Part shown: piece by piece, positions 6,166 through 38,103 of the stretch
How the letters are laid out: each line of letters opens with the position of its first letter
Numbering within the stretch: the stretch's first letter is position 1
Assembly: GCA_043228905.1 (NCBI GenBank)
Contig: JBHGNT010000005.1
Span: 23,870,001-23,934,000 of the forward strand
DNA: 64,000 nucleotides
Source: Azolla caroliniana
Lineage: Eukaryota; Plantae; Polypodiophyta
Direction: 5' to 3'
The notes under the pieces: model-generated
What the model was told of the DNA's origin: nothing
The model's database searches: none
What the model saw: only the letters and a program-made list of their open reading frames with translations
Made by a program: the position numbers and the translations under genes

Positions 6166-6614
6166 TGTCACGGACAGGTAGACCAGGATAGGGATAAGTA
6201 GGCGAGCTAAATATTAAGAGAGAGCGAAAGATAGATATATAAATAGAGAGAGCATAGAGAAGAGAACAAGAGAGAGAGAAGGTAGACAAAAGAGCAAGAA
6301 CTAAATTATGCTTCGGTAACTGGTGTTGTTCACCTTGATTGTAATCAAGGTGCACCGAAATATTTATACAAGAATGTGGTGATATGCATGCAAGCTATAG
6401 AAACATCTAGAGAGTGCATGGAAACTTCTAGAGAGTGCATGAAGATGCATTCTCTAGAAGTTTCTTGAAAGTTCTAGTGATTAACATAGAATGTAATAAG
6501 TTGAAACGTATACAATATATAATGCATAGATGGATATAGCTCAATTGGTAAGGTTGCCCAATAAGACCAGGAGGTCATGGGTTCAACCACCTACATTCCA
6601 TTGTGTCTATGACA
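6166..6614 (-). mobile_element. Solo LTR (449 bp) inside the LINE RT, carrying a tRNA-like cassette and HSEs (also 47892-48340)
   Basis: TGTCA...TGACA termini; TSD acgct/acgcc; the LINE frame VKKQT|PYTLLLE is restored on removal; orientation inferred from TATAAATA on the minus strand near 6361-6368. Confidence 0.85.
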
Positions 6615-7206
6615 ACGCCCTACACCCTCCTCCTTGAGACGAGATCGCTTCCCATTGAGATCATAGCCATGGAAAGGGTTGTTGAATACATGCTTAAGGT
6701 TCAAAAAAGTCCCTCACATCAACTTCCTAGAATTGCATGGGAAGCAAGAAAAAAGACACATAAAAGCAAAATTTTGTGTTCTGGTTAGATGCAAGATATA
6801 GAAAAATGGTTTGGTAGATGGGATGCGAGACACTTGTTTCATGATGCATCACTAGATTTCTCTATAAATGAGGCCTTTTGCAACACCAATGTATCATGAC
6901 ATGGGACAAATGTGGAGGCTCACGCTTCACACATTATACTACACATGTTGCACCTAACTACAAAACCATATTCTTTGCGGAACAGGGAAATCGTACACAT
7001 CCATACATGTTAGAGCCCATACCGTTATCTGCCATTCGAACCATTGCTTCCATGCGACTTAGCTCACATGCATTGCAATGTGAAACATGGCGTTGGGGCA
7101 CAAATGATGAGAGTGGTCAGCTATGCACACTTTGCCCTAAACAAGTTCGCAAGTCTGAGTATCACACTTTGATACAATGCTCTGCCTTTGATCATATTCG
7201 ACCATG

Positions 7207-7661
7207 TGTCAGGAACTCTATTAAGGCAGAGAAGGAATTAGTACTAAAAGAAGGATTAGTACTATTGTTGGGGAATAGTACTAAGACAGAGAAGGATTAG
7301 TACTATGAGAGGTGTCGAACTTTGAGAGAAGGAATGAGTGAGTGAGAGAGAGAGAGAGAGAGAGAGAATGATGATGCGAAAGATATATGTATTATATGAC
7401 GGAAGATATACAACAGTAGTTAGAAGGCTTAAGACTGGCGTTGAACCGATTTGGTTCGAACTAATGCCTTGCGCCTCCTTTTATAGTGTCTTCAGGAATA
7501 CTCCTGAAGTTTCTAGAATGTTCCAGAGAAATCTGGAATATACATCAATTTCCTAATAAAACCTAAATGAAAATAATATCCTTCAAATTACAACTCATAA
7601 CCTAATGGTAAAGTCTCGACCCGTGTAACAAAAGGTTATGGGTTCGAGTCTAGTTATGACA
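7207..7661 (-). repeat. 3' LTR of the chromovirus
   Basis: Identical by eye to 12496-12950; preceded on the minus strand by PPT AAAGGGGGGATAG. Confidence 0.95.
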
Positions 7662-10600
7662 CTATCCCCCCTTTAAAACGACGAGTTTCACGAGTCGTTT
7701 TGGATTGAGGACCCGGTTTCTCGGGATATCGTCGATGGAAGTCTTCTAGAAGAGCACGAGCATTGGTCACATTCTCGATCGGTTCCCAAGTACGCTCGCT
7801 GGGACTATATCCTAGCCAATCGACTAGATAGTAGAGCTTGTTGCGAACAATCTTGGAATCGAGGATGGCAGCGACCTCATACTCAGGTCCATCTTCGAGC
7901 TCGATAGGAGGTGGAGGTTGTATAGTACGTCCTGGGATAGTGCTCTCGTGATAGGGTTCGAGGAGAGAACTATGAAACACCGGGTGTATCCGAAGTTGCG
8001 GAGGTAGCTCGAGACGAAAAGCGACATCATTAATCTTCCCGATAATACGGAAAGGACCTAATCGTCGATAATCCAACTTCTCACATGGGCGAGTAGTCTT
8101 GATGTGTCGTCGTAGCAGCCACACCCGATCTCCAATGTTAAAACTGGATGGAAGTCGATGACGATCTGCGTAGTCCTTGTGTGATTGTTGAGCTTGCTGG
8201 AGTTGAGTAGATAAATCCGCTTGTATCTTGCGTAACCGCTCCAAACGATCCTCCGCGCAAGGATTTGTGGACACTTCTGGGGTTTCAAGGACACACCACC
8301 GGGGATGATATCCCGTATAAGCGTAGAATGGCGTGACTTTAGTCGATGCGTGGATAGCGTTATTATAGGCAAATTCGGCGAACTGAAGAATATCTGCCCA
8401 GTCATTCTGATGATAGTTGAGAAAGCACCGCAGATACTGCTCCAGTGTTTGATTTGTTCGTTCGGCTTGACCGTCGGTTTGTGGGTGGTAGCCGGAGGAG
8501 AGGTTACAAGTGACCTTTAGCATTTTAAAAAGGTGCTTCCAGAATTTTGACACAAACTGGGGTCCACGATCGCTGATGATATTATCAGGGAGTCCATGAT
8601 GCCGACATACTTCCCGCATGACAATTTCGGCGGTGTCTTCACTAGATATTTCTTTAGTACATGGTAAGAAATGAGCCATCTTCGTATATCGATCCACCAC
8701 TGTGAGAATCGCACTGAATCCCTTAGAGACTGGAAGATCTGTAATGAAGTCAAGAGCAATGGATTGCCATGGCTTGCTTGGAATTGGTAATGGTTCTAAT
8801 AAACCATATGGATGATGTCTTGGCATTTTCGCTCTGCAGCATGTATCGCAAGTCCGAACAAAATCTTCGACAAATTGTCGCATACGGGGCCACCAGAATG
8901 ATCGTTGTACTAAATCTAATGTTTTAGTACTACCAAAATGTCCTGCTGTATATGTGTCATGGCAGTTTTGTACTACTCGAAGGCGGCAAGAACCATTAGG
9001 AACATACAAAAGTTCTTTAAAGAAGAGTAATCCATCACAGTATTTGAATTGCCGATAATCCGTACCTGGTGATTGTGATTGTGAACATGACGCTCGAGAG
9101 GGGTCAATTTGTGCTAGTATAGCTTGGGCGAAAGCGTCAGTCTTCAAGTCCTCACGTATAGTATTGGTAATGTCGGAATCCACGGGCATGTCAAAGATCT
9201 GTGCTGCTTGCAGTCGTGCTGGACCCAAGATTACTTGCTTCTGGTTATCGAAAGCTGGCTCACCGGGACGTGGTGTTAGATACGAACGCCGTGATAATGC
9301 ATCTGCCTTCCCTTGGTGCTTCCCCGGACGATATGTAATTTTGAAGTCGAAGCGTGTGAGGAAGTGGGCCCACCGAGCTTGACGTCGATTCAGTACACGA
9401 GCATCTTGAAAGTAGGCAAGGTTCTTGTGGTCACTGAATACAGTGACCTGATGAGGAGATCCCTCTAGGAAATGCCTCCATTGCATAAAAGAATCAACTA
9501 TTGCTAATAGCTCTTTATCATGAATTTCGTAGTTGATTTCGGCGGCGTCAAACTTACGGGAGTGGAAAGCCACAGGATGTAGCTTCTCGTCGTTACCCTG
9601 TTGTGACAGAATGCTCCCCAATGCGAAATCCGATGCATCAGCTTCGATAATGAATGGTTTTTCCGGATCCACATGACCTAAAATTGGAGCTGATGTAAAC
9701 GCCTTCTTAAGACTCTCGAAAGCCATGTCCGTCTCTTTAGACCAAATGAATGATTGTCCCTTCCTGGTGAGCTGTGTGAGAGGCAGCACAATTTTTGAGT
9801 AATTTTGTATGAACTTCCGGTAGAAATTTGCAAAGCCTAGGAAGCATTGCACATCCCGCACCGAACGCGGAGTGTGCCATTCTATCACCGTTTTGACCTT
9901 GGCTGGATCCATAGATATGCCTTCTGAGGAGATGACATAGCCGAGAAACTCCACTTGGTTGCACCCGAAACTACATTTCTCTAACTTTGCATACAGACCA
10001 TGTTCTCGAAGTCGTTTTAGTACTAATAGTACATGAGAATCATGTTCTTCTTGGGTCTTTGAATAAACCAGTAGATCATCCAAATAGATGATCAAAAAAT
10101 CATCCAAGAGATCTCGAAATATATCATTCGCCATGTGCTGGAAGACTGCCGGCGCATTAGTGAGTCCGAACGGCATGACCGTATACTCGAAGTGCCCATA
10201 TCTGGTGCGAAACGCGGTCTTCCATTCATCTCCTGGTCGGATCCGTACGAGGTTATAGGCTCCTCGTAAGTCGATCTTCGTGAAGAACCTGGCACCGTTG
10301 ATCCGTTCTAAAAGACTTGAGATAAGGGGAAGAGCATACCTATTTCTTACTGTGACCTTATTCAAGCCACGGTAATCTACAACGAGTCGAAGCGAGCCAT
10401 CTTTTTTCTTGACGAAGAAAATGGGTGCGCCGGCTGGAGATTTCGAATGCCGAATGAAACCGTTCTCCAAATTCTCCTCTATATAGGCTCGAAGGACTTC
10501 TAGCTCGGTTGGTGACAAATTGTAGATCGGCCCCCATGGCGGCTCTTTTCCCGGTTGTAAGTCGATGGCGCAGTCGTACGGCCGATGATGAGGAAGTGTG

Positions 10601-11250
10601 TTGGCTTGTACTTTATCGAACACATCAGCATACTGACGATACTTCTCGGGAAGTTGAACGGTGGACTCCTCTTTGGTGGTGCTGGAGGGTTGTACTGATA
10701 TTGCAAAGAGAAACATTTCCTCCTTGCGCCCTTCCTCACGCAACTGGCGTAGCGAAATGGTTGCAACCTTCTGGGTAGATCCTTGGGTTTGTCGCAACCG
10801 GATTTCCCTTGTCCTCCAATCTATGTCTGGGTCATGTAACTCGAACCATGGTAATCCTAAAACTATGGGATGTTCTGGAATACTAATAATATTAAATGAT
10901 ACTACACATGTTAAGTTATCTAGGACAATATTAACGGGTTCCGACTCTTCTATGATATTACCAGAAGCAATGGGACGACCATCAATGACTACTACTGAGG
11001 CTGGACATGGGAGCTTTCTGAGAGATATCTGATGAGCTCGGGCAAAATTCCTATCCATGAAGCAAGAATTAGCTCCGGAATCTAGAAGGGCTAAGGTATG
11101 TACTGGAGGGGTACTTTTAGTACTAACTGCTACTTGGACTACGAACACATCACTAACTTGCTTAGAGGGAATGGAACCACTAATGGGCTGCACAGATCTA
11201 GGGCTGTCCAACCAAACGGCTCCTATTTTGGCTGGACTTAGTCGTTTAAC
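7654..11250 (-). CDS. pol: Pol polyprotein (protease, RT, RNase H, integrase, chromodomain); probably entered by -1 frameshift
   Basis: LLDSGA protease; YLDD RT; ADASD/DHKNL RNase H; HHCC plus DDE integrase; GPF motif; chromodomain EYEVAAILDSK..YLVDWLGY..TWEP; no ATG start, frame open from the slippery site. Confidence 0.95.
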   Translation of the reverse strand, partial: VKRLSPAKIGAVWLDSPRSVQPISGSIPSKQVSDVFVVQVAVSTKSTPPVHTLALLDSGANSCFMDRNFARAHQISLRKLPCPASVVVIDGRPIASGNIIEESEPVNIVLDNLTCVVSFNIISIPEHPIVLGLPWFELHDPDIDWRTREIRLRQTQGSTQKVATISLRQLREEGRKEEMFLFAISVQPSSTTKEESTVQLPEKYRQYADVFDKVQANTLPHHRPYDCAIDLQPGKEPPWGPIYNLSPTELEVLRAYIEENLENGFIRHSKSPAGAPIFFVKKKDGSLRLVVDYRGLNKVTVRNRYALPLISSLLERINGARFFTKIDLRGAYNLVRIRPGDEWKTAFRTRYGHFEYTVMPFGLTNAPAVFQHMANDIFRDLLDDFLIIYLDDLLVYSKTQEEHDSHVLLVLKRLREHGLYAKLEKCSFGCNQVEFLGYVISSEGISMDPAKVKTVIEWHTPRSVRDVQCFLGFANFYRKFIQNYSKIVLPLTQLTRKGQSFIWSKETDMAFESLKKAFTSAPILGHVDPEKPFIIEADASDFALGSILSQQGNDEKLHPVAFHSRKFDAAEINYEIHDKELLAIVDSFMQWRHFLEGSPHQVTVFSDHKNLAYFQDARVLNRRQARWAHFLTRFDFKITYRPGKHQGKADALSRRSYLTPRPGEPAFDNQKQVILGPARLQAAQIFDMPVDSDITNTIREDLKTDAFAQAILAQIDPSRASCSQSQSPGTDYRQFKYCDGLLFFKELLYVPNGSCRLRVVQNCHDTYTAGHFGSTKTLDLVQRSFWWPRMRQFVEDFVRTCDTCCRAKMPRHHPYGLLEPLPIPSKPWQSIALDFITDLPVSKGFSAILTVVDRYTKMAHFLPCTKEISSEDTAEIVMREVCRHHGLPDNIISDRGPQFVSKFWKHLFKMLKVTCNLSSGYHPQTDGQAERTNQTLEQYLRCFLNYHQNDWADILQFAEFAYNNAIHASTKVTPFYAYTGYHPRWCVLETPEVSTNPCAEDRLERLRKIQADLSTQLQQAQQSHKDYADRHRLPSSFNIGDRVWLLRRHIKTTRPCEKLDYRRLGPFRIIGKINDVAFRLELPPQLRIHPVFHSSLLEPYHESTIPGRTIQPPPPIELEDGPEYEVAAILDSKIVRNKLYYLVDWLGYSPSERTWEPIENVTNARALLEDFHRRYPEKPGPQSKTTRETRRFKGGIVS
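11198..11250 (-). promoter_or_regulatory. -1 programmed ribosomal frameshift signal
   Basis: G_TTA_AAC (11244-11250), 6-nt spacer, 11-bp stem GTCCAGCCAAA/TTTGGTTGGAC; pol is in the -1 frame. Confidence 0.8.
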
Positions 11251-11402
11251 TCTTCTTCTAATTGGCTAAGGACATCAAATTTGTTTGCGAGATTCGGACT
11301 ATTAGTACTATTAGGACTATTATGACTATGAGGATTATCAGAGATTCCTACTGACATAGACTCGGGTTTAGTATAGTCAGAACTAACAATGACTTGGTTT
11401 AC

Positions 11403-12407
11403 CTACCTTCTTGGTCTATGGGGACAGTTTATCGCGATATGCCCTGGTCCACCGCAATAAAGGCATAATCGGTTTGTTCGGCGTCGTTGCTTTTCCTCCT
11501 CCGATAGCGGCCCACGACGACGTGTAGTGTCAATTTCCATTGGAGTTGGAGTACTTACTGGAGGCGCATTATGTGACTCCCTTTGAAAAGGTTTCGCTAC
11601 CACTGAGGCATAGGTAGGCTCGGATCTTGCCCTCGGCATCTGAAATTGTCGTTCCGAACGTCGCTCGAAGAGGCGGTTGTCACATCTGACCGCTCGACTG
11701 ATTGCTTCTGTTAATGATTTTGGCTCTTCAGGGAAAGTCAAGAGTAAATCCTTGACATCGTTGCGTAGACCATAGCGGAACTGCTCCATCAATGCTTGAT
11801 CATCCCAGGGGATATCGGCGGCGAGTAGGCGGAAATCTGCAGCATATGCGGAGGCTGGACGGTCACCTTGGCGTAATCGCCGGATTTTGTTGATTGCAGT
11901 CCTTATGCTGTCAGTATCTCCAAAACATGCTTTAAACTCACTTATGAATTCTTCAAAATTATTTAGTACTGGAGATTCCTTTTCTAGTAGCGGAGCGAAC
12001 CATGCTAATGCTGAGCCATTTAACAACGTGCCTACTAAACCCACTCGTGATGCATCGGTGGGATATCGGGACGGATGCATTTGAATAACTAACCGTACCT
12101 GGTTAAGAAACCCTCTAAACTGCGATCGCGTTCCATCGAACTTCGTGGGAAGGCCAATCTTGGGTTCTTTATGAATCCCTTGTGCTCCGTGCCCTTGTTG
12201 TTGCATTGCTACGATGGTTGCTTCGAGTTGTTGCACGCGTAACGCAAGTTCCCCATGCTGTTGTTGCGTTTGCTGCTTTTCTAAGGAAATTTGCTGAAGA
12301 TCCCCCAACAAGCGTTGATTTTCTTGTTCCAAAGCATGAAACTTCTCTTTCAAGCATTGAAATTCCGAGAAAACAGATTGATACTCTTCAGCGCTAACGG
12401 TGGCCAT
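11403..12407 (-). CDS. gag: Gag (PEG10/sushi-like capsid plus CCHC zinc knuckle)
   Basis: PTKFDGTR, LRQG, PTPMEID and CLYCGGPGHIAINC motifs; N-terminal coiled coil; the frame stays open past the TAG to 11238. Confidence 0.93.
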   Translation of the reverse strand: MATVSAEEYQSVFSEFQCLKEKFHALEQENQRLLGDLQQISLEKQQTQQQHGELALRVQQLEATIVAMQQQGHGAQGIHKEPKIGLPTKFDGTRSQFRGFLNQVRLVIQMHPSRYPTDASRVGLVGTLLNGSALAWFAPLLEKESPVLNNFEEFISEFKACFGDTDSIRTAINKIRRLRQGDRPASAYAADFRLLAADIPWDDQALMEQFRYGLRNDVKDLLLTFPEEPKSLTEAISRAVRCDNRLFERRSERQFQMPRARSEPTYASVVAKPFQRESHNAPPVSTPTPMEIDTTRRRGPLSEEEKQRRRTNRLCLYCGGPGHIAINCPHRPRR

Positions 12408-12481
12408 GGGATGAAGGAAAAGGGAAATAAGAGACTAGTAGGAAAGGAGAGAGACAGAAGGAAGAGGGAGACTAGTAGGGA

Positions 12482-12493
12482 AAATCGGTTCAA
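12482..12493 (-). promoter_or_regulatory. Self-complementary primer binding site (Tf1-like)
   Basis: TTGAACCGATTT, 2 nt after the 5' LTR, is the exact complement of AAATCGGTTCAA at 12730-12741 (minus strand), 33 nt downstream of the TATA box; no TGG tRNA-type PBS. Confidence 0.82.
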
Positions 12494-12495
12494 AC

Positions 12496-12950
12496 TGTCA
12501 GGAACTCTATTAAGGCAGAGAAGGAATTAGTACTAAAAGAAGGATTAGTACTATTGTTGGGGAATAGTACTAAGACAGAGAAGGATTAGTACTATGAGAG
12601 GTGTCGAACTTTGAGAGAAGGAATGAGTGAGTGAGAGAGAGAGAGAGAGAGAGAGAATGATGATGCGAAAGATATATGTATTATATGACGGAAGATATAC
12701 AACAGTAGTTAGAAGGCTTAAGACTGGCGTTGAACCGATTTGGTTCGAACTAATGCCTTGCGCCTCCTTTTATAGTGTCTTCAGGAATACTCCTGAAGTT
12801 TCTAGAATGTTCCAGAGAAATCTGGAATATACATCAATTTCCTAATAAAACCTAAATGAAAATAATATCCTTCAAATTACAACTCATAACCTAATGGTAA
12901 AGTCTCGACCCGTGTAACAAAAGGTTATGGGTTCGAGTCTAGTTATGACA
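12496..12950 (-). repeat. 5' LTR of the chromovirus
   Basis: TATAAAA on the minus strand at 12768-12774; followed by a PBS-position sequence at 12482-12493. Confidence 0.95.
12780..12817. promoter_or_regulatory. Heat-shock element array in the LTR U3 (also 7491-7528)
   Basis: TTCagGAAtaCTCctGAAgtTTCtaGAAtgTTCcaGAG: eight in-phase nGAAn/nTTCn units, six perfect, adjacent to the TATA box. Confidence 0.75.
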
Positions 12951-13173
12951 CCATGCTTTCCACATCTCTTCGATCGAGCCCAATCTTTGCATGAATTCCT
13001 ATCACAACCACAATGTGCACTCTCGATTGCAACATTCATTGGTAAAGTTCTTGAACATCGAGAGTCACTACTCACTTTCACACGTATCACGTGAAATGTA
13101 ATATTTTTGGTCTCATATGTCATATTTGACTTCTAGAGACGATAATATAATCAATCTATCTCTCTCTCTTTTT

Positions 13174-13375
13174 ATTGTAATTAGCTTACCCTATTGGTAA
13201 ATTGTTACCCTACAAGTCAGTATGTCTTAGGTTTGAAACCCAATTTTACTCACCTCTCTATTATGTACTCCATACATATGTCTTAATTCACTAGATGTCA
13301 CTGTGGAATGTAGGGGTTGAACCCATGACCACCTAGTCTCCATTGGGCAACCTTACCAACTGAGCTACATCCATC
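13174..13375 (-). mobile_element. tRNA-derived SINE, copy B (also about 49151-49352)
   Basis: Minus strand GGATGTAGCTCAGTTGGTAAGG...GGGTTCAACCCCTACATTCCA; homologous to 5022-5225; the LINE inserted into its 3' end. Confidence 0.78.
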
Positions 13376-13376
13376 T

Positions 13377-13429
<53 letters not shown>

Positions 13430-18573: not shown

Positions 18574-21468
18574 AACTCCCCCTTCACTTCGAATGGGACC
18601 TCACTAGTCCAATCTAACTCTGACATGCTTCTAGCCTTTCTTTCGACAACACCTTTGTCAACATGTCAGATCCGTTCTCCGATGTGTGGATCTTCGTCAA
18701 AGCAAACTCCCCTTCTACTACCCGCCCTCGGAGCCAATGGTATCTTCTTTGAATATGCATGGTCCTTGAGTGGTAGGCCGCATTCTTTGCAAGGTGGATG
18801 GCACTTTGGTTGTCGCAGTACAGTCTGAATTCACCTTGTCGACTCCCAGTTGTCCGACAAACTCCCTCATCCATATCATTTCCTTGCCGGCATCGACAAC
18901 TACCATGTACTCAACTTCTGTGGTCGACAATGCCACGGCCTTTTGTAACCTTGACTGCCACAAGACGGCTCCCCCTGGACAAGTCATCACATACCCAGAT
19001 GTGGACTGAGTGGTATCTACATCAACCGACATGTCTAAGTCGGCAAAGCCTTCTAACACGGGGTTACCTTAACCGAATTGAAGACACATGCTCGAGGTGC
19101 CTTTGAGGTACTGAAGTATCCACTTTACTATTGCCCAATGTTCTCTTTCAGGGTTGCTCATGTATCGGTTGACGACTCCGACTACGTATCCAATGGCAAG
19201 CGTGGTACATACCATTGTGTACATCAGGCTTCCGACTGTTGCAGCATATGGCACCTTCATCATCTCAGCTTTCTTCGTCTTCGTCTTTGGACATTGTGTC
19301 GACGATAGCTTACTGTTTGTCGGAAGTGTCGAGCCGACCAATTTCCCGCTTTCCATGTTGCATCTCTAGAGCACCTTTGTCACGTATTTCTCTTATGACA
19401 GCCATAACAATTTCTAAATCCAATCTCAAACAATGTGCATCCCCAAGATTTGTTTTGCCGGACCCATGTCTTTCATTGAGAACGACTTGCTCAAGGCCTT
19501 CTTCAACATTCGTATCTTCATCTGGTCCCGTTCAACAATCAACATGTCGTCCACATATAGCAAGAGAATAAGACAATCTCCTCCCTCGAACTTCTTCACA
19601 AACAAACAATGGTCGGCCTGTGTTTTGTGGTACCCTTGATCGGCCATGAAGGATTCAAACTTCCGGTACCATTGTCGGGGAGCCTGCTTCAGTCCATAAA
19701 GGGTCTTCCTCAACCGACACACTAGGTTCTCCTTTCCTTTCTCGATGAATCCTTCTGGTTGTTGCATGCAGATTTCTTCCTCTAAATCCCCATGCAGAAA
19801 TGTCGTCTTGACATCCATTTGTTCGACTTCTAGATCCATGTTGGCTGCTATGCTTAGTACTGTTCGGATGGATGTCATTTTCACCATCGGGGCAAATATT
19901 TCATCGAAATCCACCCCCTTTTTCTACTGGAAGCCCTTTACGACGATTCAGGCTTTATATCTGGGTCGATTCCCGCCATCTCCCAGCTTCATCTTATACA
20001 CCCACTTGTTTCTGAGTGCCCTCTTTCCTTTTGGCAACTCCATCAGCTCATATGTGTGGTTTTCATGCAGGGAATCCATCTCATCCTACATGGCCCTTAG
20101 CCACTTTCTGTTGTGGGTGTCTTTCTTTGCTTCCTCAAAGCTTTCCGGCTCCCCCTCGTAGGTTAGTAGCACATATTCTTTATCTGAAAATCTTGGGGGG
20201 GGGGGGGGGCGGGGGGGGGCTTCTTTCTCTTAGAGGGTATCGTCTTCCTTTGTTTTCCTCAGTTGGCTCATTGAGATCTTCTTCTTCTCCTTCCACCGGT
20301 TCTTCATCTAGGTTGGAGTTGACTACTTCTTCATCGGATCCGACACCATGTTCGACTCCAACTCCTGATTAGCCTCTGATCGACCCGAATCCTTGTCCGA
20401 GTTCGATCAACTCTCCACGTTCTTCAGTTGATTGTCTTCCGATATTTTAGGAGGATGTGTTCGACCCCGATATGTCTCGGCTTCGAACAACCTTCTTGTC
20501 GACTAAGTCCCATAGTCGGTAGACAAATTCATCATCTCCATAGTAGAGAAATATGCATGGTCGAGATTTTGGATCTAATTTTCTCCTTTGGTCCTTATCC
20601 ACATGCACATAGGCAAGACAACCAAACACCTTTAGATGTCGGTATGACACGTTGTCGTGAAGATTTTCGACAACAGTGTGAAAATCGCATGGAACAAGGA
20701 AAATCGAGAAGGTGTAATGTGCACATGTATGAAAGGAGTGACGGTTACACATGTATGTTAGCACGTTAATGTGCACGTGTGATGTGTGTTTAGGTGTTCA
20801 TTACACAAGATATAAAAATAAACCTAGGGCCTAGTGGCATACAATGAGGTGCAAGTAAGGTTTTGAACCTTACGCCTCGAGGATAGGAAGCAATTGACAT
20901 ACCATTAGGCTAGGTTGTTTTCTTCATTATACTTTTCACATGTAACAACTTGTACATGAGAGCTTGAATGAGAGCCATGGTCATCATGCATCACATGTGA
21001 TGCATGAGCGCCAAATGGCAATCATGCATCACATGCATTTCATGCATTGTATGCATGTCTTACACCCTCCATCCATCATATGCATGGGGTCATCTATATA
21101 AAAGGAAAGGAAGGGAAAAGAAAAGGGGGAGCAATGTATCGAATGAATAATAATAATAATAAATCTTAGTTATCTCATTGGCGATGTGTCTTGTTCCTCA
21201 ATTTTGAAGTCAAAGGTTCAAACCGGGAATTGGAATTCTCGTCTGTATCTATCTATCTTTAATATTTTCTCGTGTGCGCTAGTCCTTCCGGTCCAGAACA
21301 CTAACGGTTCCGCTTCATTGTCTTGAACAATCCATTTGATCCTCCATCACCACTTGCGGATAGAGGCCAGTGCTTGTCTGTGCACGTGTAACACGCACAT
21401 CTCGACGTTTGGCACATGCGTCACGTGCTTCACGACATCTTTGTGGTGCGATAAATATTTTCTCAATA

Positions 21469-21527
<59 letters not shown>

Positions 21528-22659
21528 CAACCCACACAAGCATCTTCGACAACAATAACGACCCGATTCTAAACCTAAACGACGGTCAATTCCTTACAAG
21601 CACAAGTCACCCGATTCATCCTCCTTGGTCAAAGACCCCGGTGGTCCTGTTCGACCGACCCGCAGGCGGATTTCCGCGACAACGTCTTTGCCAATTCACA
21701 CTCTCTATGGGACATCATCGTCCAAGGGTGCCAAGGGTGATTTGTTTATCATGTACACCATTTTCATCAGCGCCACAACCCAAAACATCTTGGACAATTT
21801 TGCATGTGCTAGCATACTTCAAACCCTTTCCATTAATTATGGTTTGGTTCATCCTCTCTGCCAGCCCGTTAAGCTATGGTGTCTTCGGCACGATGTATTC
21901 AAGACGGATTCCTTTCGATCAACAATACTGTTCAAACTATCCTCGGTACTCTCCTCCGTTGTCAGCTCGAACTGCCTTTAGTTGTCGGCCGATCTCCCAT
22001 TCGACTCTCACTTGGAACTCCTTGAAGACGGATAATTCTTGATCCTTCGCCTTCAAGACAGAAACCCACAACTTCCGGCTATAGTCATCTATGAAGGTCA
22101 CAAAGTATTGTGAACTGGCGTGCGACTTAGTGTCGACATAGCATACATCAGTATGCACGAGTTCCAATGGCATTCTTTTCCTTGTCGGGGTTTGGGGTTC
22201 GGGTTCGGAAGGATGTTTTGTTCTGCTTATCGACCAAGCAGTCGATGCACTTCTCCAGTTCCACGTTCTTCACCTTCGGAATGAGGTTATCATCGCAAGT
22301 CTTCCCATCCCCTTCTAGCTCATGTGACACAACCTCTTCTGCCACAGCTCGCCGACAGTGTTGACTGCCACGTTCGCTTCTTCTTGACATATCCGAGCAT
22401 GCATCAAGTACGGAGTGCTGGTTTTCTTAGCTCAGGCCACAATCAGGCTCCCTTTGCTGAACTTCATGACTCTATTCCGGATGCTACCTGTGTAGCCTTC
22501 GTCATCTAGCCGATCGGCTGATACCAGGTTCAGTCGAACATCCTTCAGTACTAGCCGACACCCAGTCGACGTTACTAGAAACACATCACCAATGCCAACG
22601 ATTCGGCATGCTCCTTCATTTCCCATCCTTACAAGACCGTGATCTCTATACCTTGTATG
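18574..22659 (-). mobile_element. Degenerate Ty1/Copia internal region (GAG-pre-integrase, INT, RT, RNase H), 5'-truncated (also 54535-58595)
   Basis: LELVHTDVC, FIDDYSRK, VRADNGGEY, QMDVKTTFLHGDL, LYGLKQAPRQW, LLYVDDML, LYCDNQSAI; many stops and frameshifts. Confidence 0.92.
20653..21681 (+). mobile_element. Solo LTR of the TGTCGTGAAG family nested in the Copia integrase (also 56613-57617)
   Basis: TGTCGTG...CGCGACA termini; 4-bp TSD ACGT; removal restores GKDVSYRHL. Confidence 0.82.
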
Positions 22660-22789
22660 TGTCAGGAGCAGTACTAAGATAGAGAAGTACTGTCAAGAAC
22701 AATACTAAGATAGAGAAGGAATTAGTACTAAAAGATGAAGATTAGTACTAAGGGAGGTGTAGAACTCTCGAGAAAATGAAAGAATGAGT

Positions 22790-22820
<31 letters not shown>

Positions 22821-24172
22821 GATAACAAAAGATATATATTATGTTAAGGGAATATACAATAGTAGCTAGGAGGCTTAAGACTGGCGTTGAACCGATTTGG
22901 TTCAAAATAATGCCTTGTGCCTCCTTTTATAGTGTTCTCAGGAGTACTCCTTTTCTAGAATGTTCTAGAGAAATCTAGAATATACATCAATTTTCTATAG
23001 TAAAACTTAAATGAAAATAATATCTTTCGTATTATAATACATAGTCTAATGGTAAGAGCTCGACCCATGTAACATAAGGTCATGGGTTCGAGTCTTGCCA
23101 TATCATGACACTATCCCTTTTTTAAAACGACGAGTGTCACGAGTCATTTTGGATTGAGGACTTGGTTTGTCTGGATATTGATCGATGGAAGTCTTCAAGA
23201 AGAGCATGAGCATTGGTCACATTCTCTATTGGTTCCCAAGTATGCTCGTTGGGACTATATCCTAGCTAATCGACTAAATAATAGAGCTTGTTGCGAACAA
23301 TCTTGGATTTGAGGATGGCAGCAACCTCGTACTCAGGTCCATCTTCAAGTTCAATCGGGGGTGGAGGTTGTGGAATCCGTCTTGGGATGGTGCTATCTTG
23401 ATAGGGTTTGAGGAGAGAACTATGAAACACCGAATGTATGTGAAGTTGTGGGGGTAGATCGAGACGAAAAGCGACATCATTAATCTTTCCAATAATACTG
23501 AAAGGACCTAATCGCCGATAATCCAACTTCTCGCATGGGCGAGTAGTCTTGATGTGTCGTCGTAGTAGCCATACCTGATCTCCAATGTTAAAATTGGATG
23601 GAAGGCGATGACGATCCGCGTAAACATTGTGTGTTTGTTGAGCTTGTTATAGATGAGTAGATAAATCGGCATGTATCTTGCATAACCGCTCCAAACGATC
23701 CTCGACGCAAGTATTTGTGGGTAACTCTGGGGTTTCAAATACACACCACGGAGGGTGACAACCTGTATAAGCATAAAATGGTGTAACTTTAGTCGATGAG
23801 TGGACAGAGTTATTATGGGCAAATTTGGCGAAGTGGAGAATATCTGCTCAATCATCCTGATGATAGTTTAGAAAGCACTGAGGATACTGCTCCAGCGTTT
23901 GATTTGTTCGTTCTGCTTGGCCGTCCGTTTGCGGGTGGTAGCCGGAGGAGAGGTTACAAATGACCTTAAGCATTTTAAAAAGGTGCTTCCAGAATTTTGA
24001 GTCGAATTGGGGTTCACGGTCGCCGATGATATTATTAGGAAGGCCATGATGGCGACATACTTCATGCATGACAATTTCGGCAGTTTCTTCACTGGAGATT
24101 TCCTTAGTACATGGCAGGAAATGAGCCATCTTCATATATCGATCTACTACTGTTAAAATTGCATTGAATCCT

Positions 24173-27500: not shown

Positions 27501-28867
27501 CCCGGTTAAGGAGCGGTGTTCCGAGCCAGAAAGGGCACACCCGAAAGCGGGACAAGAGACGTGTGAGTGGCCATCGAGGGCCAAAGCAAGCACGAGTACG
27601 GGACGGCGTTCAGCACAGGCGGTGCCGAACAAGGAAGGCGGAAGACGCCACACGGCACGGCAACCATAGAAGGAACAAGGAGCGCGTATTGGGGTCACCT
27701 AAGGACCGAAGAACGAACGCGCATCTCGGGGACAATAATGTCACACGGGAGCGCGGAGCGGAGAGAGTCAACACGCGGAGGGTTTCGGGACGCGGAGACG
27801 ATCGAACCAACAGAGGGACATACGCGGCACGCAAGATGCGGAATCCGGCGTACAACCGAAGTGACCGGGGGTGCGATCAGAGAACATACGTAGCGGATAA
27901 AGGAGGGGTGACCGGATCGGCAACGGTGTTCGGGAGGACCGATCGGGGAAGAAGGCGCGAACGTCGGATGTGGGCGGGGCCGATAAGGAGCCGGCAAGAT
28001 GGTCGAGTGCCGGTAAGGTGGAGGACCCGGTTAATCACCGTCATCGAAATCTCTCACCCTTTTCCTTTCTTGGCACATACCGGTGGTGGATGTGCGGTTT
28101 GATGGGGGTGGATGTCGTGAAGATTTCCGACTATAGTGTGAAACCGGGGTGGAATGGGCAAGTCGGTGGTGTGCAACATGTGCACATGTATAGTAGGAAA
28201 CGATGTATAGAATAAGGGGGAGTATTTATCCCACATTGTAACGCCCTCCCCTCCTTGGTCTATAAAAGGAGGAAAGGGTCTCTTGTAAAAGGGTTGCCCA
28301 TTTTTCAGTCATAAGGGTATTACCATTTTGATCGAGGGTCTCTTCGTTAGGAATTGGTCTAGGGTTAGAAACTTTCTTTTGTATTCTTCTTCTTCTCCTC
28401 CTCCTTCTTGAGAAGTTGGGGCGCCGCAGCCATGGCGGCAAAGCTCTGTTAGGGTTGTGTTCTTCGTCGTTGTGCGTGTTGAGTCCTTGTGTCTGTTCTG
28501 AGTGTAGCCCGACCCGAAGTAGGGTTTGTATCAATCTTTGTGAATATACATATATTTATATATAGATAGATAGATATAAGGATGCGAGAGTTCAAATCTC
28601 TGCCGGTGTCGCATGTGTTTCCCTTACTCTGTTCTCTGTACAAACGAGGCGTGGTCTGAATCAGTGTTGCGCGCATATTCTCTCTCTCTCTCTCTCCTCT
28701 CCTCTCTTGTTCTCAACCAATTCCGGTACATGTCCGGAATAGCCCCGGTTTGTACCACGACCGGTGTAGTTGCACCGAAGAGGGTCGGCTTACCAGCATC
28801 CATCTCTTCCTGGTCTGAGACCCCCATGGTCTCGCCCTTCTACACGCACGCGCGTAATATCGCGACA
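24530..28867 (+). mobile_element. Non-autonomous (gag-only) LTR retroelement with tRNA-Trp PBS, nested in the chromovirus gag (also about 60472-64000)
   Basis: Partial 5' LTR 24530-24744; PBS TGGTGAACCTGACGTGAA 24749-24766; decayed gag-like HFNGDKVPFYLEAY...SWETFERAL; PPT GATGGGGGTGGA 28101-28112; 3' LTR 28113-28867; no PR/RT/INT motifs seen. Confidence 0.82.
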
Positions 28868-31246
28868 ACATGTAGTGTCAATCTCCATCGGAGTCGGAGT
28901 ATTCACTTGAGACACATTATATGACTCCCTCAGAAAAGGTTTCGCTACCATTGAGGCGTATGTGGGCTCTGATCTTGCCCTCGGCATCTGGAATTGTTGT
29001 TCCAAACATCGTTCGAAAAGGCGGTTGTCACATCTCACCGCGCAACTGATTGCTTCTGTTAATGACTTTGGTTCTTCGACGAAGGTCAAGAGTAAATCCT
29101 TGACATCATTGAGTAAACCATAACGAAATTGCTCCATCAATGCTTGATCATCCCAAGGGATATGGGCGGCGAGTAGGCAGAAATTTGCAGCATATGTGGA
29201 GGCTGGACGATCACCTTGGCGTAATCGTCGGATTTTGTTGATTGTTGTCCTTATGTTATCAGTATCTCCAAAACAAGCTTTAAACTCACTTATAAATTCT
29301 TCAAAATTGTTTAGTAATGGAGATTCCTTTTCTAACAACGAAGCAAACCATACCAATGTTGAGCCACTAAGTAGAGTGCCTACTAGTCCCAGTCGTGATG
29401 CATCGGTGGGATATCGAGAATGATGCATTTGAATCACTAAACATACCTGATTCAGAAAACCTCTAAACTATGATTGGGTCCCATCAAATTTTGCAAGAAG
29501 ACCGATCTTGGGTTCTTTGTGAATCCCTTGAGTGCTTGATCCTTGTTGTTGTAGTGATACAATAGTCGTGTCAAGTTGTTGTACACCTAACGTCAGCTCC
29601 CTATGTTGTTGTTTTTCCAGCGCTATTTGTTGAAGATCCCCCAACAAACGGTGATTTTCTTGTTCTAGTGCTACAAATTTCTCTTTTAGGCATTGGAGCT
29701 CCGAGAAAACAGATTGGTATTCCTGAGCGCTAACAGTTTCCATTTTACTAGGGAGGATAAGAGGATTAGTATGAAGGGAAAAAAGGGGTAAGAAATGAGG
29801 GAAACCGGAAAGAAGACCGGAAAAAAGGGGATATGTAAGAATATAAAAGGAAGAGGAGGAAAGGAGGAGACAGAAGGAGGGAAATCGGTTTAAACTGTCA
29901 GGAATAGTACTGAGACAAAGAAGAAATTAGTACTAAGAGAGGAATATTGGTACTAAGAGGAATAGAGGGTGTAGAACACTCGAGAGAATGAGAGAGAGAG
30001 AGTGAGTGAGTGAGAGATCGAGGGAGAGAAAATGATGATGACAGCGATATATTATGTGAGAAGAATATACAATGAAGGCTAGGAGGCTTAAGACTGGCGT
30101 TGAACCGATTTGGTTTGAAATAATGCCTTGTGCCTCCTTTTATAGTGTTCTCGGGAGTAATCTTGAAGCTTCTAGAATGTTCCAGAGAAATCTGGAATAT
30201 ACATTAATATCCTATGAATTACAATAGATAGTGTAATGGTCAAGAGCTTGACCCATGTAACATAAGGTCATGGGTTCGAGTCTTGCCATATCATGACAAA
30301 ACCAATGCAGTAGAACGAGGACCCACTCGAACCCCTAGACCAGACTAGAGCATATTGGACATACTCATCGAGGATTGAAGAGGCTAATTGTGGGTTCGAC
30401 GTACAATGTATTGTCCCACGGGCGTGTCATGTGTTGGTCAGAGGCTGGAGTATGAAAGACAAGTGGGGGATGAGTCAGAAGCAGAAAGTATTAGTTATTA
30501 GTTAGCTAGAATTAAAATAGGAACGAACGGATCTGAAAGAGTTGCAACGATCTGGATCCAGACCGATTCGTAGCCAGTTGCCGGTATGGCACCGTTTTGT
30601 AATCAGAACCGGATTCCTATAAAAGGATCCGAAGAACGATGTATTAAGTATGGTGGAATGAATATAAGTAGAATTGTCTTTGAGAATATTGTGTACCTTC
30701 CTTTCTGTGCTTATGGTTTTATCTTACGAATGACATCAATCTGTGTATGTTGTTAATCCAGAACCGACCCGAAAATAGTCGGATATAATTATAATCCTAC
30801 CAAAAGCATAAACCCTGTAACCACCCTTTGGTGAAGTGATCCGAAAGGAGACCCTGTGTTAGTGGCTAGTCCGGCCCAGGATTAAAAACCTTATTGTGCA
30901 TGTTTAATTGGAACCATTTACAAACTTGTCAATTTTCATCACAAACTATTGATTTTTATCCTTATTGATATAGTTTAAACAATATCCACCCATCCAACAA
31001 TGAAGATATTTTACATGCCTTGTGTAAGCTCAAACAATATAAACACTTACATTACAAAATAAGTGCACTTTGGGTCATATAAAACAATTGGCTTGGCCAA
31101 GTTAGCTACAAGGGATACAATCATTGTCCAAATATTCGGTTAATCCAAACAACCTTTCCAAATATCATGAATCCTCCTTTGGTCAAGGGATCCTTTAGTA
31201 GAATTTCTACTACCCGTTGTCTCTGAATGTTAGAAGGGGATGTATG

Positions 31247-32393: not shown

Positions 32394-32570
32394 CAGTAAC
32401 CATTTGGTTAAGTGTGTGCCCACTTAAGTGTGCTATTCTATTAAGTGCGCATTTTATAGAGGTCAAAATCTAGATCAAAAAATTTACATTGTTTCATGAT
32501 GAAATTACATCTAACCAAATTGAAACTATGTTCAAACATTTAAAAAACAATAAAATCATATAAAAATCTG
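32394..32570 (-). mobile_element. Fragment of the Tc1/mariner MITE family seen at 14926-15692
   Basis: Reverse complement of about 15530-15692 (gttaagtgtgtgcccacttaagtg...tatagaggtcaaaatc). Confidence 0.7.
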
Positions 32571-33420
32571 ATTATTACACATTGAATGGTATGGTATGTG
32601 TGCCAATTAGCAAATTTCACATTCAGTGATATAATTTATTCATATTCATCCCCTCCTTCGTAGTGTTTCCCTACCTGAATACTCTTTCTATTGCTTCTTG
32701 TTATTTTTATTTTATTTTTTTCCAAAAAAAGATACTACATTAGTATTAGAAAACCGCCATAAGGCTAAACATACAAGCTATACCGATCCCCTATATTTTT
32801 CTAAAGTCTAACCATTGGCTTGAATAAACACTTTGGTGTTGAGTAGAACCACTCCACCTTACCAAAATACCGTCTATAAAATATACCTATGTCCCAAATG
32901 GCATGAAACTCCACCCGCCTAAGCTCCGCTTGATGCGTATTACCTTTTATTGTTATTGATGCATCTTCTTAATCTTCTTATAATTCTTATTCTTCTTCCT
33001 TCTTTTCCTTATTCTTTCCTAAACCACTTCTTTTTCTTGATTCTTATTGATCCTAATTTGTTTCATTCTTCTTCTTCCACTGCAAATGCATTTCCTTGAT
33101 TCTTCTTCTTTTACTCTATGTACTCCCTTTTCATGATGTTTCTTCCTACTAATACCCCTTCCCTTCTTCTAATGAGTTCTTAATTCTTATTATTCCGTCT
33201 ACTTCCCCTTCCCCTATTCATCATCATCTACTTCCTTCTGTTTCTTTCTTTGTATTTCCTTCTCCTTGCTCCCTCTCCTTTCTGGTTCGTCTTCTTCTAC
33301 TTCATGTAGAGTTCTAGTCCATGAGAGAAAATACAAATTTCATAATATATTTGCGCCTGTAAAGCTTCATAAACTAGATTGTAGCCCCATAAATAGCTAC
33401 TTTCAAGATGATAGTTCCAA

Positions 33421-36400
33421 CTACTTAGCATCCATAAGAGCCCCGCTGGTCACGCCGAAGGCACATTTCGCGGGATTCAGGCTTAAGCGTGCAGTGCGAC
33501 AACGTTCCAAGCACAACTGCAAATGCGTAAAATGGTCGGGTTTTATCCCATATACCGCAAAATCGTCTAAAAAAACTTGCATGAATGACAGAATATATTC
33601 CCCAAAGATCTCCGTGATTGTCCGTTGAAATGTCGCCGGCACCGTCTTTAGCCCAAACATCATGACGTCTGCCACATAGACTCCCCAGTCCGTGACAAAT
33701 GTCGTCTTCTCTTGGTCATCGGGATGCATGCGTACCTGGTTGTATCCACTGAATCCATCTAAAAAACTATACATGTCATGCCCTACGACGGCGTCCAGTA
33801 CGCTATCGGTGAATGGTAAAGGGAATGCGTCTGTAATGGTTATGGCGTTTAATTTTCGGTAATCCACGCATACTCATATTTTGCCATTTTTCTTTGGAAC
33901 GACTACTATCGGACTTAACCATGTGGCTTGTTTAACTGGCCGTATGAATCCCGCCTTTAGGACTTTGTCAATTTCTTCTTTTACGCGGGTCGCGTAGTTC
34001 GGGTTCATGCGGTAGCGACGTTGCTTGACCAGTTTTGCGTCGGTTGCTAAATTAATCTTATGTTGATAGAACTTTGGATCTAACCCCTTCATGTCCTCGT
34101 GAGCCTAGGCGAACACATCTTTATATTTCTTGAGTAGTTCGATCATTGCATCTCTCTGGTTCGGCCTTACTTCTTTTGCGATGGAGAGGAAACGGGGTTC
34201 TGACGTCATACCCACGTTTACTTCTTCCAGGGCTGAGGCGGTGACTCATCGTGAAATTTCCATTTCCCTCTCGAATGCTACCCGTGCTCTGCTTAGTTCT
34301 AATATTGACTCCAGGTTTGGTTCGTAAGCCTCATCGTGGAGAGTACTGGTCGTGGCATATTCTACCGCGGTTGCGATGACGTTGATTTCGAACAGCGGAA
34401 TAATCCGAGGGTGCTCATCTAGGTATGCCTCTAATTTTGCATCATCCACCCCAGCCAACATATTTATATCTTCCGCGTATAATGGTGTTATACCCTTGGA
34501 TTGTGTCGCCCTTTCCTCCGTTGGTACACGAACCTTGGTGCGTCCGTGTTGAAAACTGATACACTTGTGTTGCCAGCTCTGCTTGATATTCGCTGCACGA
34601 AGCCACGGTCTGCCCAGCAGCACAGGGTACACCCCTGGGGCATCCAGGGCGAGGACTACCGCCGAGATGTCGAAGCAACGTACTTCCACGATAATGCCTA
34701 CCTTGCGTATCAACCCCAATGGTCGTACTAAGCGGGTATCTGCCATACGGAGCTAGAACGGGCAAGCCTCCCATTCTGAAATGCCTAACTGCTCGCATGT
34801 TTTCACGCTAATTACATTAACGCCCAAGCCACCATCGATTACGCATCCTGGGATTTCTTGACTGTGTAATATCAACGTAATAGCCGGGTTGTGGTGATCC
34901 ACTACAGACGGTTCGTTGCTAATGTCCGTGAAATTCGTAGCGACACTCACCCCGGGTATGCCCGTCACCCGTTCTTCCATGGTCTGGCGGAAGCGTGGGA
35001 CTAGTTGCAACAGCTTCTCCATGGATAACGTTATTTTGCAACCTGCCAGTGCTTGCCAAATGGGGTCCGGGGCCGGTCCTTCGTCCTCCACTAGCTCCAT
35101 CGCGTTCGCGGATTCCTTCCGCATGCGTTCCGTATTTGTCGCAGTTGCTTTTTCAACCCATGCATGGGCTGTTCGTCGTATCTCATCTTGCGTGGCCCAA
35201 TCAACCGTTTTTGTTTGTTGACGTGTTGTGACTTGCTGCACTTCTGTCGTAATCGTATTGACGACGAGCCCTTGCCCTTGCGTACTGGGCATTGTGTGGC
35301 ATAATGTCCGGGCTGCTGACAAACAAAACAATGGATGCTAGATTTGCCCTTCTCGGCCCCTGGTGGTGTGTGCCGATCCCTCGGTCTGGCTTTGTTTGTC
35401 GGAGCGTACGCAATGGTTGTTGTTGGTCCCGGCGTGGTTCTTGGTGTCGGTCATCATCCGAGCTTTCGTCATATCGTCGGTGGTCCTGATATTGCCGCTG
35501 CTTTCCACGAGGTCCATTGAAGCCGCCACATTTGTTTGTCGGCTGGTGATTCTCATAGCGCCGGCCCCCTTTAGTATATCTGGGGGGACCACGGTAGTCC
35601 TCATCCTCTGGCTCGTCTTCCTTGGAATCGTTGTGATTCCGGCAATTCCAGTAGTGCTAGTCATCACGTGGGTTGTGATCCATATACCGTGGTCGGTCTT
35701 CTTGCCTCCTTTGTTCAGTACGGCGTGGGGGACGCTATGTGTCCATGTTGTGTACTGTGGGAGCGGCTCTGTTCAATATATTGTATTCGCACTGCTCGAC
35801 TGTGTGAGCCTTCGAGTGACAGATTGGGCAGTGGATTCGCATGTTGCACTCCAGTGCAAAATGCCCCGAATTCAAGCAAATTGTGCACTGGATTGCTTGA
35901 CGAAAATGTTGTTCCTCGTCCTGAGGTAACGCTTGTCGTAATGAGGACATAGAAAACCTTTCCTCTACGTTGTCCAGCTCGAGTTGTAACGCTCTATCGA
36001 TGACCATATCGGTTGTTTCCCCTTTCACGCTATTGTTGTTGAGCGTTGTCCGTATGGGTCGGCGTAATGCCGCCAGAAATGTCTCCCGTGCCTCGTCCTT
36101 CGCGAGGCCCCGTTCTAGTTTCCCCCGTAAATTTTGGAAACGTAAGCTGAAATCCATGATCGTCTCGGTCGGCAGCTGCTTAATTGTGTAGAAATGTCCG
36201 AGGATTTCGCGTTGTGAAACCCTCCGATGGAAGAACCGCAAAAAGGTGGACTCCAGTTGGTCGAAGGTCGTGATTGCTGGCAGATCCATCTGTGAATGCC
36301 AAAACGTCGCCCGCGCATCCAATGTTAACCCGAACTCCGTCATTTTGGACTGGTGCGCTACCGCCTCAGAAAGGCTCTGTGCCATGTGGTTTGCATTCCA

Positions 36401-37150
36401 GACATTGAGGAACAGACAAATGTGGGTTGCGGTGTCGGTTTCGCTGTTAAAGCGGGGATAGGCAAAGGCCATGCTGGGGGCTATGGCGGGCAGGGAAAGA
36501 GCACAGTGTTGTTGTGGTGAGCATGCTTCCCGCGTATTGTCGAGGTATTTGGAGAGCGGGAAATCACCTTTGTGGTCCCGACAGGTAGTGTTGAGGTCGT
36601 TGAGGCGAGGCTTCTACCGTGCGCGTTCCTCTGCCTGGCGTGTGATGGACCTTGTGATCGGCCGGTCTGGTCGTGTTGGTTTTCTGGAGTGTCTGCAGCT
36701 AAACATCCATTCGTCGTTGTTCTTCTATGAGAAGACACAGATCACCAAGCGTGCCAAAAGTGTTACCAACTAGAAACACGGTCTACGGTCAGTCCTTTGA
36801 CCTAGACTTCCAAGTGACTGTGTGACAACGAATGGTAGCGTCTGTGCGTAATACTTGGTGGGATATTCCCCATAACCTAGCGACGTATAAGGGAGACGGT
36901 TACAACCAAGCTCCTTTGACAGTGGGCTAGGGCACACACCGTTACTTACTCCTACGCTCTTAGGTGTTACAAACACATAGTAGATTAGCTGTAGTTACAC
37001 ACAGATATCAGAGAAGATAGAACTCTATTACGATACGCCTCTTACATTCCAAAATTACACGCTACCTCTATTAGAGGCTTTTTGCCCTTTATATACGCAA
37101 GGTCTTTTAGCCGTTCATGCTTCCCGCGTGAACCGTTACATGCGTTACAA
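33421..37150 (-). mobile_element. Truncated non-chromovirus Ty3/Gypsy (partial 5' LTR, gag, protease, partial RT)
   Basis: LTR edge at 36761; PBS-like TGGCACGCTTGGTG 36743-36756; gag with two CCHC-like knuckles (35735-36472); VIDGGLGVNVI protease; FLDGFSGYNQ and FLDDF RT; breaks off at 33421; far LTR end not found. Confidence 0.85.
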
Positions 37151-37259
37151 TATTATACTATTCCGTATTCCTGCGCTCTTGTCCATCGATTACAATTCCG
37201 GAGGACAACAAATACATAGATTGATTCATCCATTGATTGATCCCCCCCCCCATTACACA

Positions 37260-38103
37260 AGCCTTATGAGGGTTTTTATAGGTTTATCTATCCTTCTAAC
37301 ATGCACAAAACCATGGGCTTGAACCCATGGTTTTCTGGCACAAGTTTTCCTTGTGGCATGCACAAAAGCATAGGCTAAAACCATGGTTTTGTGTACAAGG
37401 TTTTGTATGTTTTTTTCCTATGGAATACTAAATATGAGAAGGAAATATACAAAATCTAACGCAATTAGTAGTAGCTTTAGTGGTAAGATAATTTCTTCCT
37501 ATCTTAGAATTGCAAGGTTCAAATCTTACTTGCACCCTTTTATATGCACTTGAATGTCATTAGACCCTAGGCTAATTTTCATATTTATAATCATGTGTGT
37601 GGAGCCACACTATTTCACAATTTCTCCCATTGGACACAGAACATCACGACATCCACCCCCACCAAACCGCACATCCTCCGGCATGTGCGAAGAAGAAAAG
37701 AGTGATGTGGTAGAGTCAAAAGGTGGTTTGTCTTTGATTTCCTCCTTCCTTATGCGTCGTCCTTTGTCCTCCATTTTGAGTACATGCATTCCTTCCACCC
37801 GATCAACCATATCATTCAATCACCTTTCGCATTTCCATGACCACTTGTCGTAGCCCCTTTTGCTCCTCCTGAGCATAACTCTTCACGCATCGTACATGTG
37901 CCGCCTTCATCTCGACCATCTCCTTGGTCATCAAACTTCCTTGGATCGTCTTTTCTCAAGGTTTAAATTTTGCTTGCACCCTTCTATATGCACTTGAATG
38001 TCATCAGACCCTAGGCTAATTTTCATATTTATAATCATGTGTATAATGTGTGTGGAGCCACACTATTTCACAATTTCTCCCATTGGACACAGAACATCAC
38101 GAC
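37260..38103 (-). mobile_element. Fragment of the TGTCGTG family: PPT plus 3' LTR start at 37651, with a local duplicate of the LTR start at about 37965-38103
   Basis: Reverse complement GGATGTGCGGTTTGGTGGGGGTGGA|TGTCGTGATG matches 28088-28122; left boundary uncertain. Confidence 0.65.

Follow-up and report, generated by a model that had tools for sequence, protein, structure and literature searches.

The stretch analysed here (the window) comprises 64,000 nt of Azolla caroliniana DNA (contig JBHGNT010000005.1, positions 23,870,001 to 23,934,000 of the forward strand), plant DNA dense in retrotransposons. Its subject of interest is a short cassette made of the A and B boxes of a tRNA-type RNA polymerase III (Pol III) promoter, which lies antisense in the U3 region of long terminal repeats (LTRs), upstream of the RNA polymerase II (Pol II) TATA box. 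A sequence-only reading had described this arrangement, and it was confirmed at all seven LTRs cited there, the TATA boxes of the solo LTR 6166–6614 and of the LTR 36762–37651 being judged by reading the sequence. The cassettes are given from A-box T8 through B-box position 61.

7598–7650, plus strand: cassette in the U3 of the 3′ LTR of an intact chromovirus; faces the polypurine tract (PPT) and the terminal part of pol; from G53 it is 20 nt to the LTR end.
12887–12939, plus strand: cassette in the U3 of the 5′ LTR of the same chromovirus; faces outward into the flank.
23042–23094, plus strand: cassette in the older Tcn1 LTR 22660–23110.
30229–30282, plus strand: cassette in the older Tcn1 LTR 29896–30298.
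6537–6589, plus strand: cassette in the solo LTR 6166–6614; 88–90% identical to the head of a repeat resembling a short interspersed nuclear element (SINE); C61 changed.
20860–20912, minus strand: cassette in the LTR 20653–21681, 215 nt into U3; T8/G10/A14/G19 and GTTCRANNC matched.
37472–37525, plus strand: cassette in the LTR 36762–37651, 135 nt into U3.

The intact or solo elements that carry them, with a control LTR, are the following.

7207–12950, minus strand: intact, very young chromovirus, probably of the Tcn1 type; 5744 bp, gag and pol intact.
6166–6614, minus strand: solo LTR from another sub-lineage of Tcn1, inside a long interspersed nuclear element (LINE); target duplication matches at 4/5 positions.
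20653–21681, plus strand: TGTCGTG-family solo LTR, lodged within a copia element; TATA box at 21095, plus strand.
36762–37651, minus strand: TGTCGTG-family LTR, left end approximate; precedes a tRNA-type primer-binding site (PBS).
28113–28680, plus strand: TGTCGTG-type LTR without an antisense cassette (control), right end approximate; best antisense score −5.1.

The LTRs of the intact chromovirus (7207–7661 and 12496–12950) are 455 bp each and identical, and the element has a target-site duplication (TSD) of 5 bp, CCATG. It encodes gag (11403–12434) and pol (7654–11265, including the chromodomain), with the gypsy order of protease, reverse transcriptase (RT), RNase H and integrase followed by a C-terminal chromodomain that retains the aromatic cage Y, W, Y. 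The TATA box lies at 7485 on the minus strand, and the PBS is a 12-nt complement to an LTR site 33 nt 3′ of it, so the element likely self-primes in place of using a tRNA PBS. By domain order, chromodomain cage, self-priming and 5-bp TSD it is likely a Tcn1-type chromovirus, an assignment made with trees that contain unnamed relatives and no named Tcn1 references. Published Tcn1 chromoviruses share these four traits and a non-seed-plant host (PMC6317226, PMC2864245, PMC3350952). Tcn1 chromoviruses in plants are reported from mosses and club-mosses only (PMC6317226), and the passages of these papers dealing with tRNA and PBS mention no U3 cassette.

Bases 1–28058 recur from position 41725 onwards in a within-window comparison. 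Cassette copies past 41725 are segmental duplicates and not independent, and window scoring was confined to 1–41724. A matrix derived from 10 non-window cassettes gave 14 matches of at least 18 bits in this interval; 40 locally shuffled versions averaged 0.15 such matches, with a top score of 24.4. The five Tcn1 cassettes of the window scored 34–45 bits. The two non-chromovirus cassettes reached 18.7 bits each, a score that also occurs in the tail of the maxima from shuffling; what identifies them is how well they match the box consensus and that they are conserved between the two copies. The other matches were four heads of the free SINE-like repeat and three weak ones at 5298, 21216 and 28364. 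A plain A+B pattern yielded 10 matches against 0.49 expected (200 shuffles); four of the 10 were false, falling on the self-priming hairpin and PBS. Four LTRs of the window, 28113 among them, have no cassette. In two TGTCGTG-type LTRs there are weak sense-strand B-box-like sites 3′ of the TATA box (21216; 28364 and 28580–28605, plus strand), which may be due to chance.

The three LTR families of the sequence-only reading reduce to two lineages of elements. Two of the families are sub-lineages of Tcn1 chromoviruses: the solo LTR 6166–6614 is 69% like the LTR of L076, a Tcn1 relative with 54% integrase identity, and also resembles a nested LTR in L072. The third, the TGTCGTG family, holds its place as a gypsy family distinct from chromoviruses, a classification read from RT motifs. 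A gag gene (35735–36613) and a non-chromovirus RT (33421–33873) belong to its element with the LTR 36762–37651. This family is represented by two cassette-bearing LTRs and one cassette-free LTR, no further U3 having been obtained.

Conservation is concentrated in the boxes. When 11 Tcn1 families, whose integrases are on average 0.63 identical, were compared in 55 pairs, identity was 0.76 in the boxes, against 0.37 in the anticodon-arm spacer (0.30 when shuffled) and 0.35 and 0.34 in the upstream and downstream flanks, which supports the earlier suggestion of selection on the boxes more strongly than the window by itself could. The box figure counts anchor bases; AGGT at 44–47, which was no anchor, was found in 11/11 families and in 12 of the 14 cassettes of a wider Tcn1 set. 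Within this wider set, a pyrimidine occupies position 48 in all 14, GTTCRA is kept in 13, and the B box GTTCRANNC is exact in nine and one base off in the remaining five; both non-chromovirus copies are exact. The bases T8-G10-A14-G19 stand at tRNA distance, with all four present in 3/14. The distance from G19 to G53 is 33–34 nt in 11/11 families (32 in the solo-LTR family), while that from cassette to LTR end ranges from 20 to 58 nt. The presumed TFIIIB segment was richer in AT than the following 60 nt at 11/11 loci. Within one family, variants of at least 8% fell on 6/21 spacer and 1/27 box-core positions (Fisher p 0.03). In the non-chromovirus pair, identity across the cassette region, spacer included, was 0.72–0.80, compared with 0.42–0.62 in the surrounding U3 (shuffled up to 0.72).

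The tRNA fold, by contrast with the boxes, is gone. A cloverleaf imposed on 16 cassettes gave 48.2% pairing against 48.1% in shuffled sequences, and no consensus RNA fold formed across them. A functional tRNA gene was considered and rejected, as ARAGORN and Rfam call no tRNA at the cassettes and the cloverleaf has lost its acceptor and anticodon stems. With ARAGORN relaxed to 85%, the head of the SINE-like repeat was alone among the matches listed in being flagged, amid much noise.

In yeast, TFIIIC makes contact with a base that lies upstream of the B box, and both binding and transcription respond to changes at 44–47 (PMC11724288). The bases kept in the cassettes, including 44–48, match those read by yeast TFIIIC, which points to a TFIIIC site. 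Since the boxes were kept across lineages while the remainder decayed, it is likely that TFIIIC binds here, and we consider the boxes to be probably under selection as a predicted DNA site for this factor.

The same box conservation would also be expected of a working Pol III promoter whose RNA matters, read outward from the 5′ LTR or antisense over the PPT and the integrase end from the 3′ LTR, and limiting or timing the element or acting as a decoy for silencing. Such a role would make sense of the retained A box and upstream AT tract, which are less needed for binding alone, and of a strand that is fixed in 13/13 clear loci although barriers work free of orientation; Pol III units in foamy-virus LTRs (PMC3993851) and the Cassandra elements provide precedents. 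However, a run of at least four T after the B box inside the LTR, as a downstream terminator, occurs in just 3/16 cassettes, neither an RNA fold nor a transcript sequence is conserved, and G10 is mostly lost. With neither a terminator nor an RNA fold conserved, a role in DNA binding is favoured over one of the outward RNA, and we regard the latter as unlikely, if by no means negligible.

A different role for RNA would place the antisense copy on the genomic RNA, where it could pair with the D-, variable and T-loops of host tRNAs during packaging, dimerisation or strand transfer. A like role has been proposed for U3-R of HIV-1 and for the bipartite primer site of Ty3. Position in U3, strand and fixed spacing all fit, and the conserved bases are those of conserved tRNA loops. 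Nevertheless, changes tolerated by wobble pairing (G>A or T>C) were found at 1/70 sites checked, and the cassette sequence matches no single tRNA. The Tcn1 element of the window moreover self-primes through its 12-nt complement (as such elements do in PMC6317226), so no primer tRNA needs tethering, and this pairing role appears improbable. Pairing of the self-primer with the cassette was rejected as a general mechanism; a B-box-like hairpin is found in some clade-I LTRs only.

A profile scan of metagenomes returned 79 loci. The LTR start was found in 33 of those tried, one of which was too short, leaving 32 readable U3s. Thirteen of these scored above 20 bits in antisense, two were partial (L010 and L021) and 17 scored 10.5 or less; sense-strand scores were at most 7.3 across all 32, and the 13 clear loci were antisense without exception. 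The boxes had first been noticed by plain motif, before the matrix. In the integrase tree (28 of 45 rows, with near-duplicates and the most distant rows omitted; all 45 were in a quick tree), clade I (support 97/96) had the cassette in 10/10 readable rows, and clade II (99/98) had it in four, decayed in two, absent in one and unread in one. It is missing from the sister group of clade II and from other outgroups, and the tree requires at least three changes of the cassette, gains or losses. Viral contigs, scanned by pattern, contributed 13 and four unrelated loci, none with an integrase match. A further profile scan found seven distant loci, and a scan of genome contigs found four relatives, 0/4 with a cassette. 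In L003, two diverged repeat copies with an A/B-like cassette (about 900–1200 and 6200–6500, minus strand) lie outside any identified U3.

The origin of the cassettes is best seen beside a free high-copy repeat.

13156–13422, no strand assigned: SINE-like high-copy repeat, ~270 bp; convergent A/B heads at 13314–13367 (minus) and 13187–13239 (plus), between (GA)n runs.
5002–5270, no strand assigned: second copy; heads at 5163–5216 (minus) and 5037–5089 (plus).

Its duplicates lie at 46728–46996 and ~49133–49399, and its layout is neither that of an ordinary SINE nor clearly that of a miniature inverted-repeat transposable element. The head retains an acceptor stem, and the repeat is also present in a run from another organism, with 28 differences over 191 nt. 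Spacers of the L061, L076 and solo-LTR cassettes are 0.66 identical to that of the free repeat, and those of the earlier-branching members of clade II differ. The SINE-like repeat is thus the likely donor of the solo-LTR cassette, and the simplest reading of these sequences is that, in the solo-LTR lineage, a new SINE head took the place of the older cassette, keeping its position and strand. Flow in reverse, with the SINE derived from an outward LTR transcript, may instead have occurred.

Clade-I spacers show residual kinship (0.348 against a null of 0.269), which is what a single old capture should leave. Identity between clade-I and clade-II spacers is at chance (0.269 against 0.254), and so is that between non-chromovirus and Tcn1 spacers. 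The independence of captures claimed in the sequence-only reading has its strongest support in the non-chromovirus family and in the SINE-related solo-LTR cassette; between the two Tcn1 clades, chance-level identity fits separate captures but also saturation after one old capture. Sporadic SINE insertions, each with its own TSD and 3′ tail, do not account for the cassettes, because only the head is present, in both LTRs, and entire lineages have it fixed. SINE or tRNA heads would have been captured repeatedly, perhaps through a template switch right after the PPT had primed the plus strand; a small RNA copied at that moment would yield both the strand and the position of the cassette.

If such a bias of reverse transcription recaptured tRNA or SINE heads at one spot, which then decayed, the cassette could be a passenger and its box conservation the mark of fresh captures. 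The kinship of the solo-LTR cassette with the free repeat (spacer 0.66; 88–90% overall), the loss or decay of the cassette in several lineages and the exact tRNA spacing would all follow. On the other hand, the clade-I spacer kinship fits one old capture, spacer similarity rises with that of the integrases (rho 0.54, from pairs that are not independent), and the acceptor and anticodon stems are gone while the boxes remain, unlike in fresh captures. A pure passenger is, on this balance, quite unlikely.

Position, strand, box-selective conservation, fixed spacing and loss of the fold are observed features of a cassette that is real and selectively conserved, and whose function is predicted. The reading that we prefer is a putative portable chromatin barrier on the promoter side, in which a back-to-front tRNA or SINE head in U3 has been kept as a TFIIIC site; we place its chances a little short of even. 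TFIIIC would bind the boxes, and the outward orientation would seat TFIIIB on AT-rich U3 sequence that travels with the element, not on random flank; an AT-rich stretch likewise lies upstream of plant tRNA genes (PMC13578239). Chromodomains of the Tcn1 kind are reported to target integration to heterochromatin (PMC3350952, PMC7466625), and the bound complex would hold the LTR promoter open after the chromodomain integrase delivers the element there. In fission yeast, tRNA genes (tDNA) block the spread of heterochromatin in either orientation (PMC2040200). If, as is believed, elements whose chromodomain reads H3K9 insert into silent chromatin, one must ask how transcription follows, and a TFIIIC site in both LTRs would be a concrete answer. 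If true, this would be the first barrier of the tDNA type in plants and an anti-silencing device borne by a transposon. The wider proposal, that autonomous retrotransposons have repeatedly captured an outward tRNA promoter, even refreshing it from circulating SINEs, as a built-in TFIIIC/Pol III insulator, is put forward more tentatively. In one run, the summed contig depth of the chromovirus family was up to ~2 million against ~100 for unique DNA, which is not a copy number; at high copy, the family could spread many potential TFIIIC sites genome-wide.

Several observations weigh against a selected barrier. Ten of the 13 high scorers had trained the matrix and two more are near-copies, so the 13 scores are not independent. 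The cassette is absent from L014, the L017 group, the L023 group and the LTR 28113 and decayed in L010 and L025, and the cassette-free or decayed lineages keep the aromatic chromodomain residues where these were read; with an intact chromodomain in lineages that have no cassette, the cassette is optional. G10 of the A box is retained in ~5/14 Tcn1 cassettes and C61 in 10/14, and the fission-yeast tDNA barrier requires an intact A box (PMC2040200). In the single family with the Fisher contrast, spacer CpG and both flanks are as invariant as the boxes, and the lack of variants in the 3′ flank and far upstream makes that contrast weak. In the non-chromovirus cassettes conservation extends to the spacer (0.79), and no chromodomain was shown for their family. 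Yeast TFIIIC accepts A–B spacing of up to 93 bp, and with this tolerance binding alone fails to explain the fixed spacing. Lastly, a barrier role of tRNA genes is said to be undescribed in plants (PMC13578239).

The boxes might instead recruit TFIIIB and TFIIIC as a landing pad that draws Pol III-targeting retrotransposons into the LTRs, as established for Ty3 targeting (PMC7175516). Yet 0/7 cassette-bearing LTRs in 1–41724 are interrupted upstream of the A box, no common insertion point appears among the loose ends listed, and insertion would follow from the boxes without explaining their retention. We consider this very improbable.

Among known systems, Helenus (TRIMp3; PMC10886601) shares tRNA-derived A/B boxes inside the LTR, but the window element lacks two of three Helenus features. 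Helenus, Cassandra and Ajax are short, non-autonomous TRIMs (miniature retrotransposons with terminal repeats), Helenus being ~300–1300 bp without coding sequence, whereas the present element is autonomous, 5744 bp long and has a Pol II TATA box. Their Pol III promoter is thought to transcribe the element itself; here the cassette faces away, antisense at 13/13 loci and in 7/7 window LTRs. The same paper states that 'not a few' Repbase LTRs contain part of a tRNA, in an analysis limited to TRIMs and with Selaginella as the sole plant case (Kojima 2024, PMC10886601). Pol III microRNA cassettes of foamy-virus LTRs (PMC3993851) are likewise A/B units in the LTR/U3 of autonomous elements and dispensable in some lineages, but they yield defined hairpin microRNAs with terminators, whereas the cassettes described here have no conserved hairpin or terminator. 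The tDNA and B-box heterochromatin barriers of fission and budding yeast (PMC2040200, PMC13578239) would work in the same way, with TFIIIC, TFIIIB and Pol III assembled on A/B boxes free of orientation; those are host loci and real tRNA genes, whereas here the site is transposon-borne, in a plant, and its barrier role is putative. A tRNA-like sequence in U3 also has a retroviral counterpart. The tRNA(Lys3)-gene-like sequence at U3-R of HIV-1 is said, to go by the title of a 2010 paper by Piekna-Przybylska, to promote minus-strand transfer; HIV-1 is tRNA-primed, whereas the Tcn1 element self-primes and keeps the boxes and not one tRNA. In the open-access literature searched, we found no such cassettes for moss elements, and Repbase, subscription papers and the Helenus supplements, which lay outside this scope, may already note them. 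A plant role of the cassette as a TFIIIC-bound promoter shield may not yet have been described in the same literature.

Some further features of the window were noted. Between 1–28058 and 41725–64000 there is a tandem segmental duplication of 99.6–99.9% identity. The intact chromovirus is confined to its first copy, and the second has an empty site near 48927–48932, so the insertion postdates the duplication unless the assembly joined two haplotypes. The old Tcn1 LTRs 22660–23110 and 29896–30298 flank one internal region; as they are 78% identical with no common target duplication, the element between 22660 and 30298 is probably recombinant. An LTR fragment at 37652–38103, which ends inside the cassette just 5′ of the B box and is joined to a complete LTR and a PPT region, is a deletion or tandem derivative. 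Arrays of TTCnnGAA stand between cassette and TATA box in 7207–7661, 29896–30298, 6166–6614, L001, L002 and L013, and in none of the other LTRs counted; these we take to resemble heat-shock elements. A dirigent-like gene (998–1606, minus strand) has close relatives restricted to metagenome records, and its nearest named homologues are fern proteins (41–42%).

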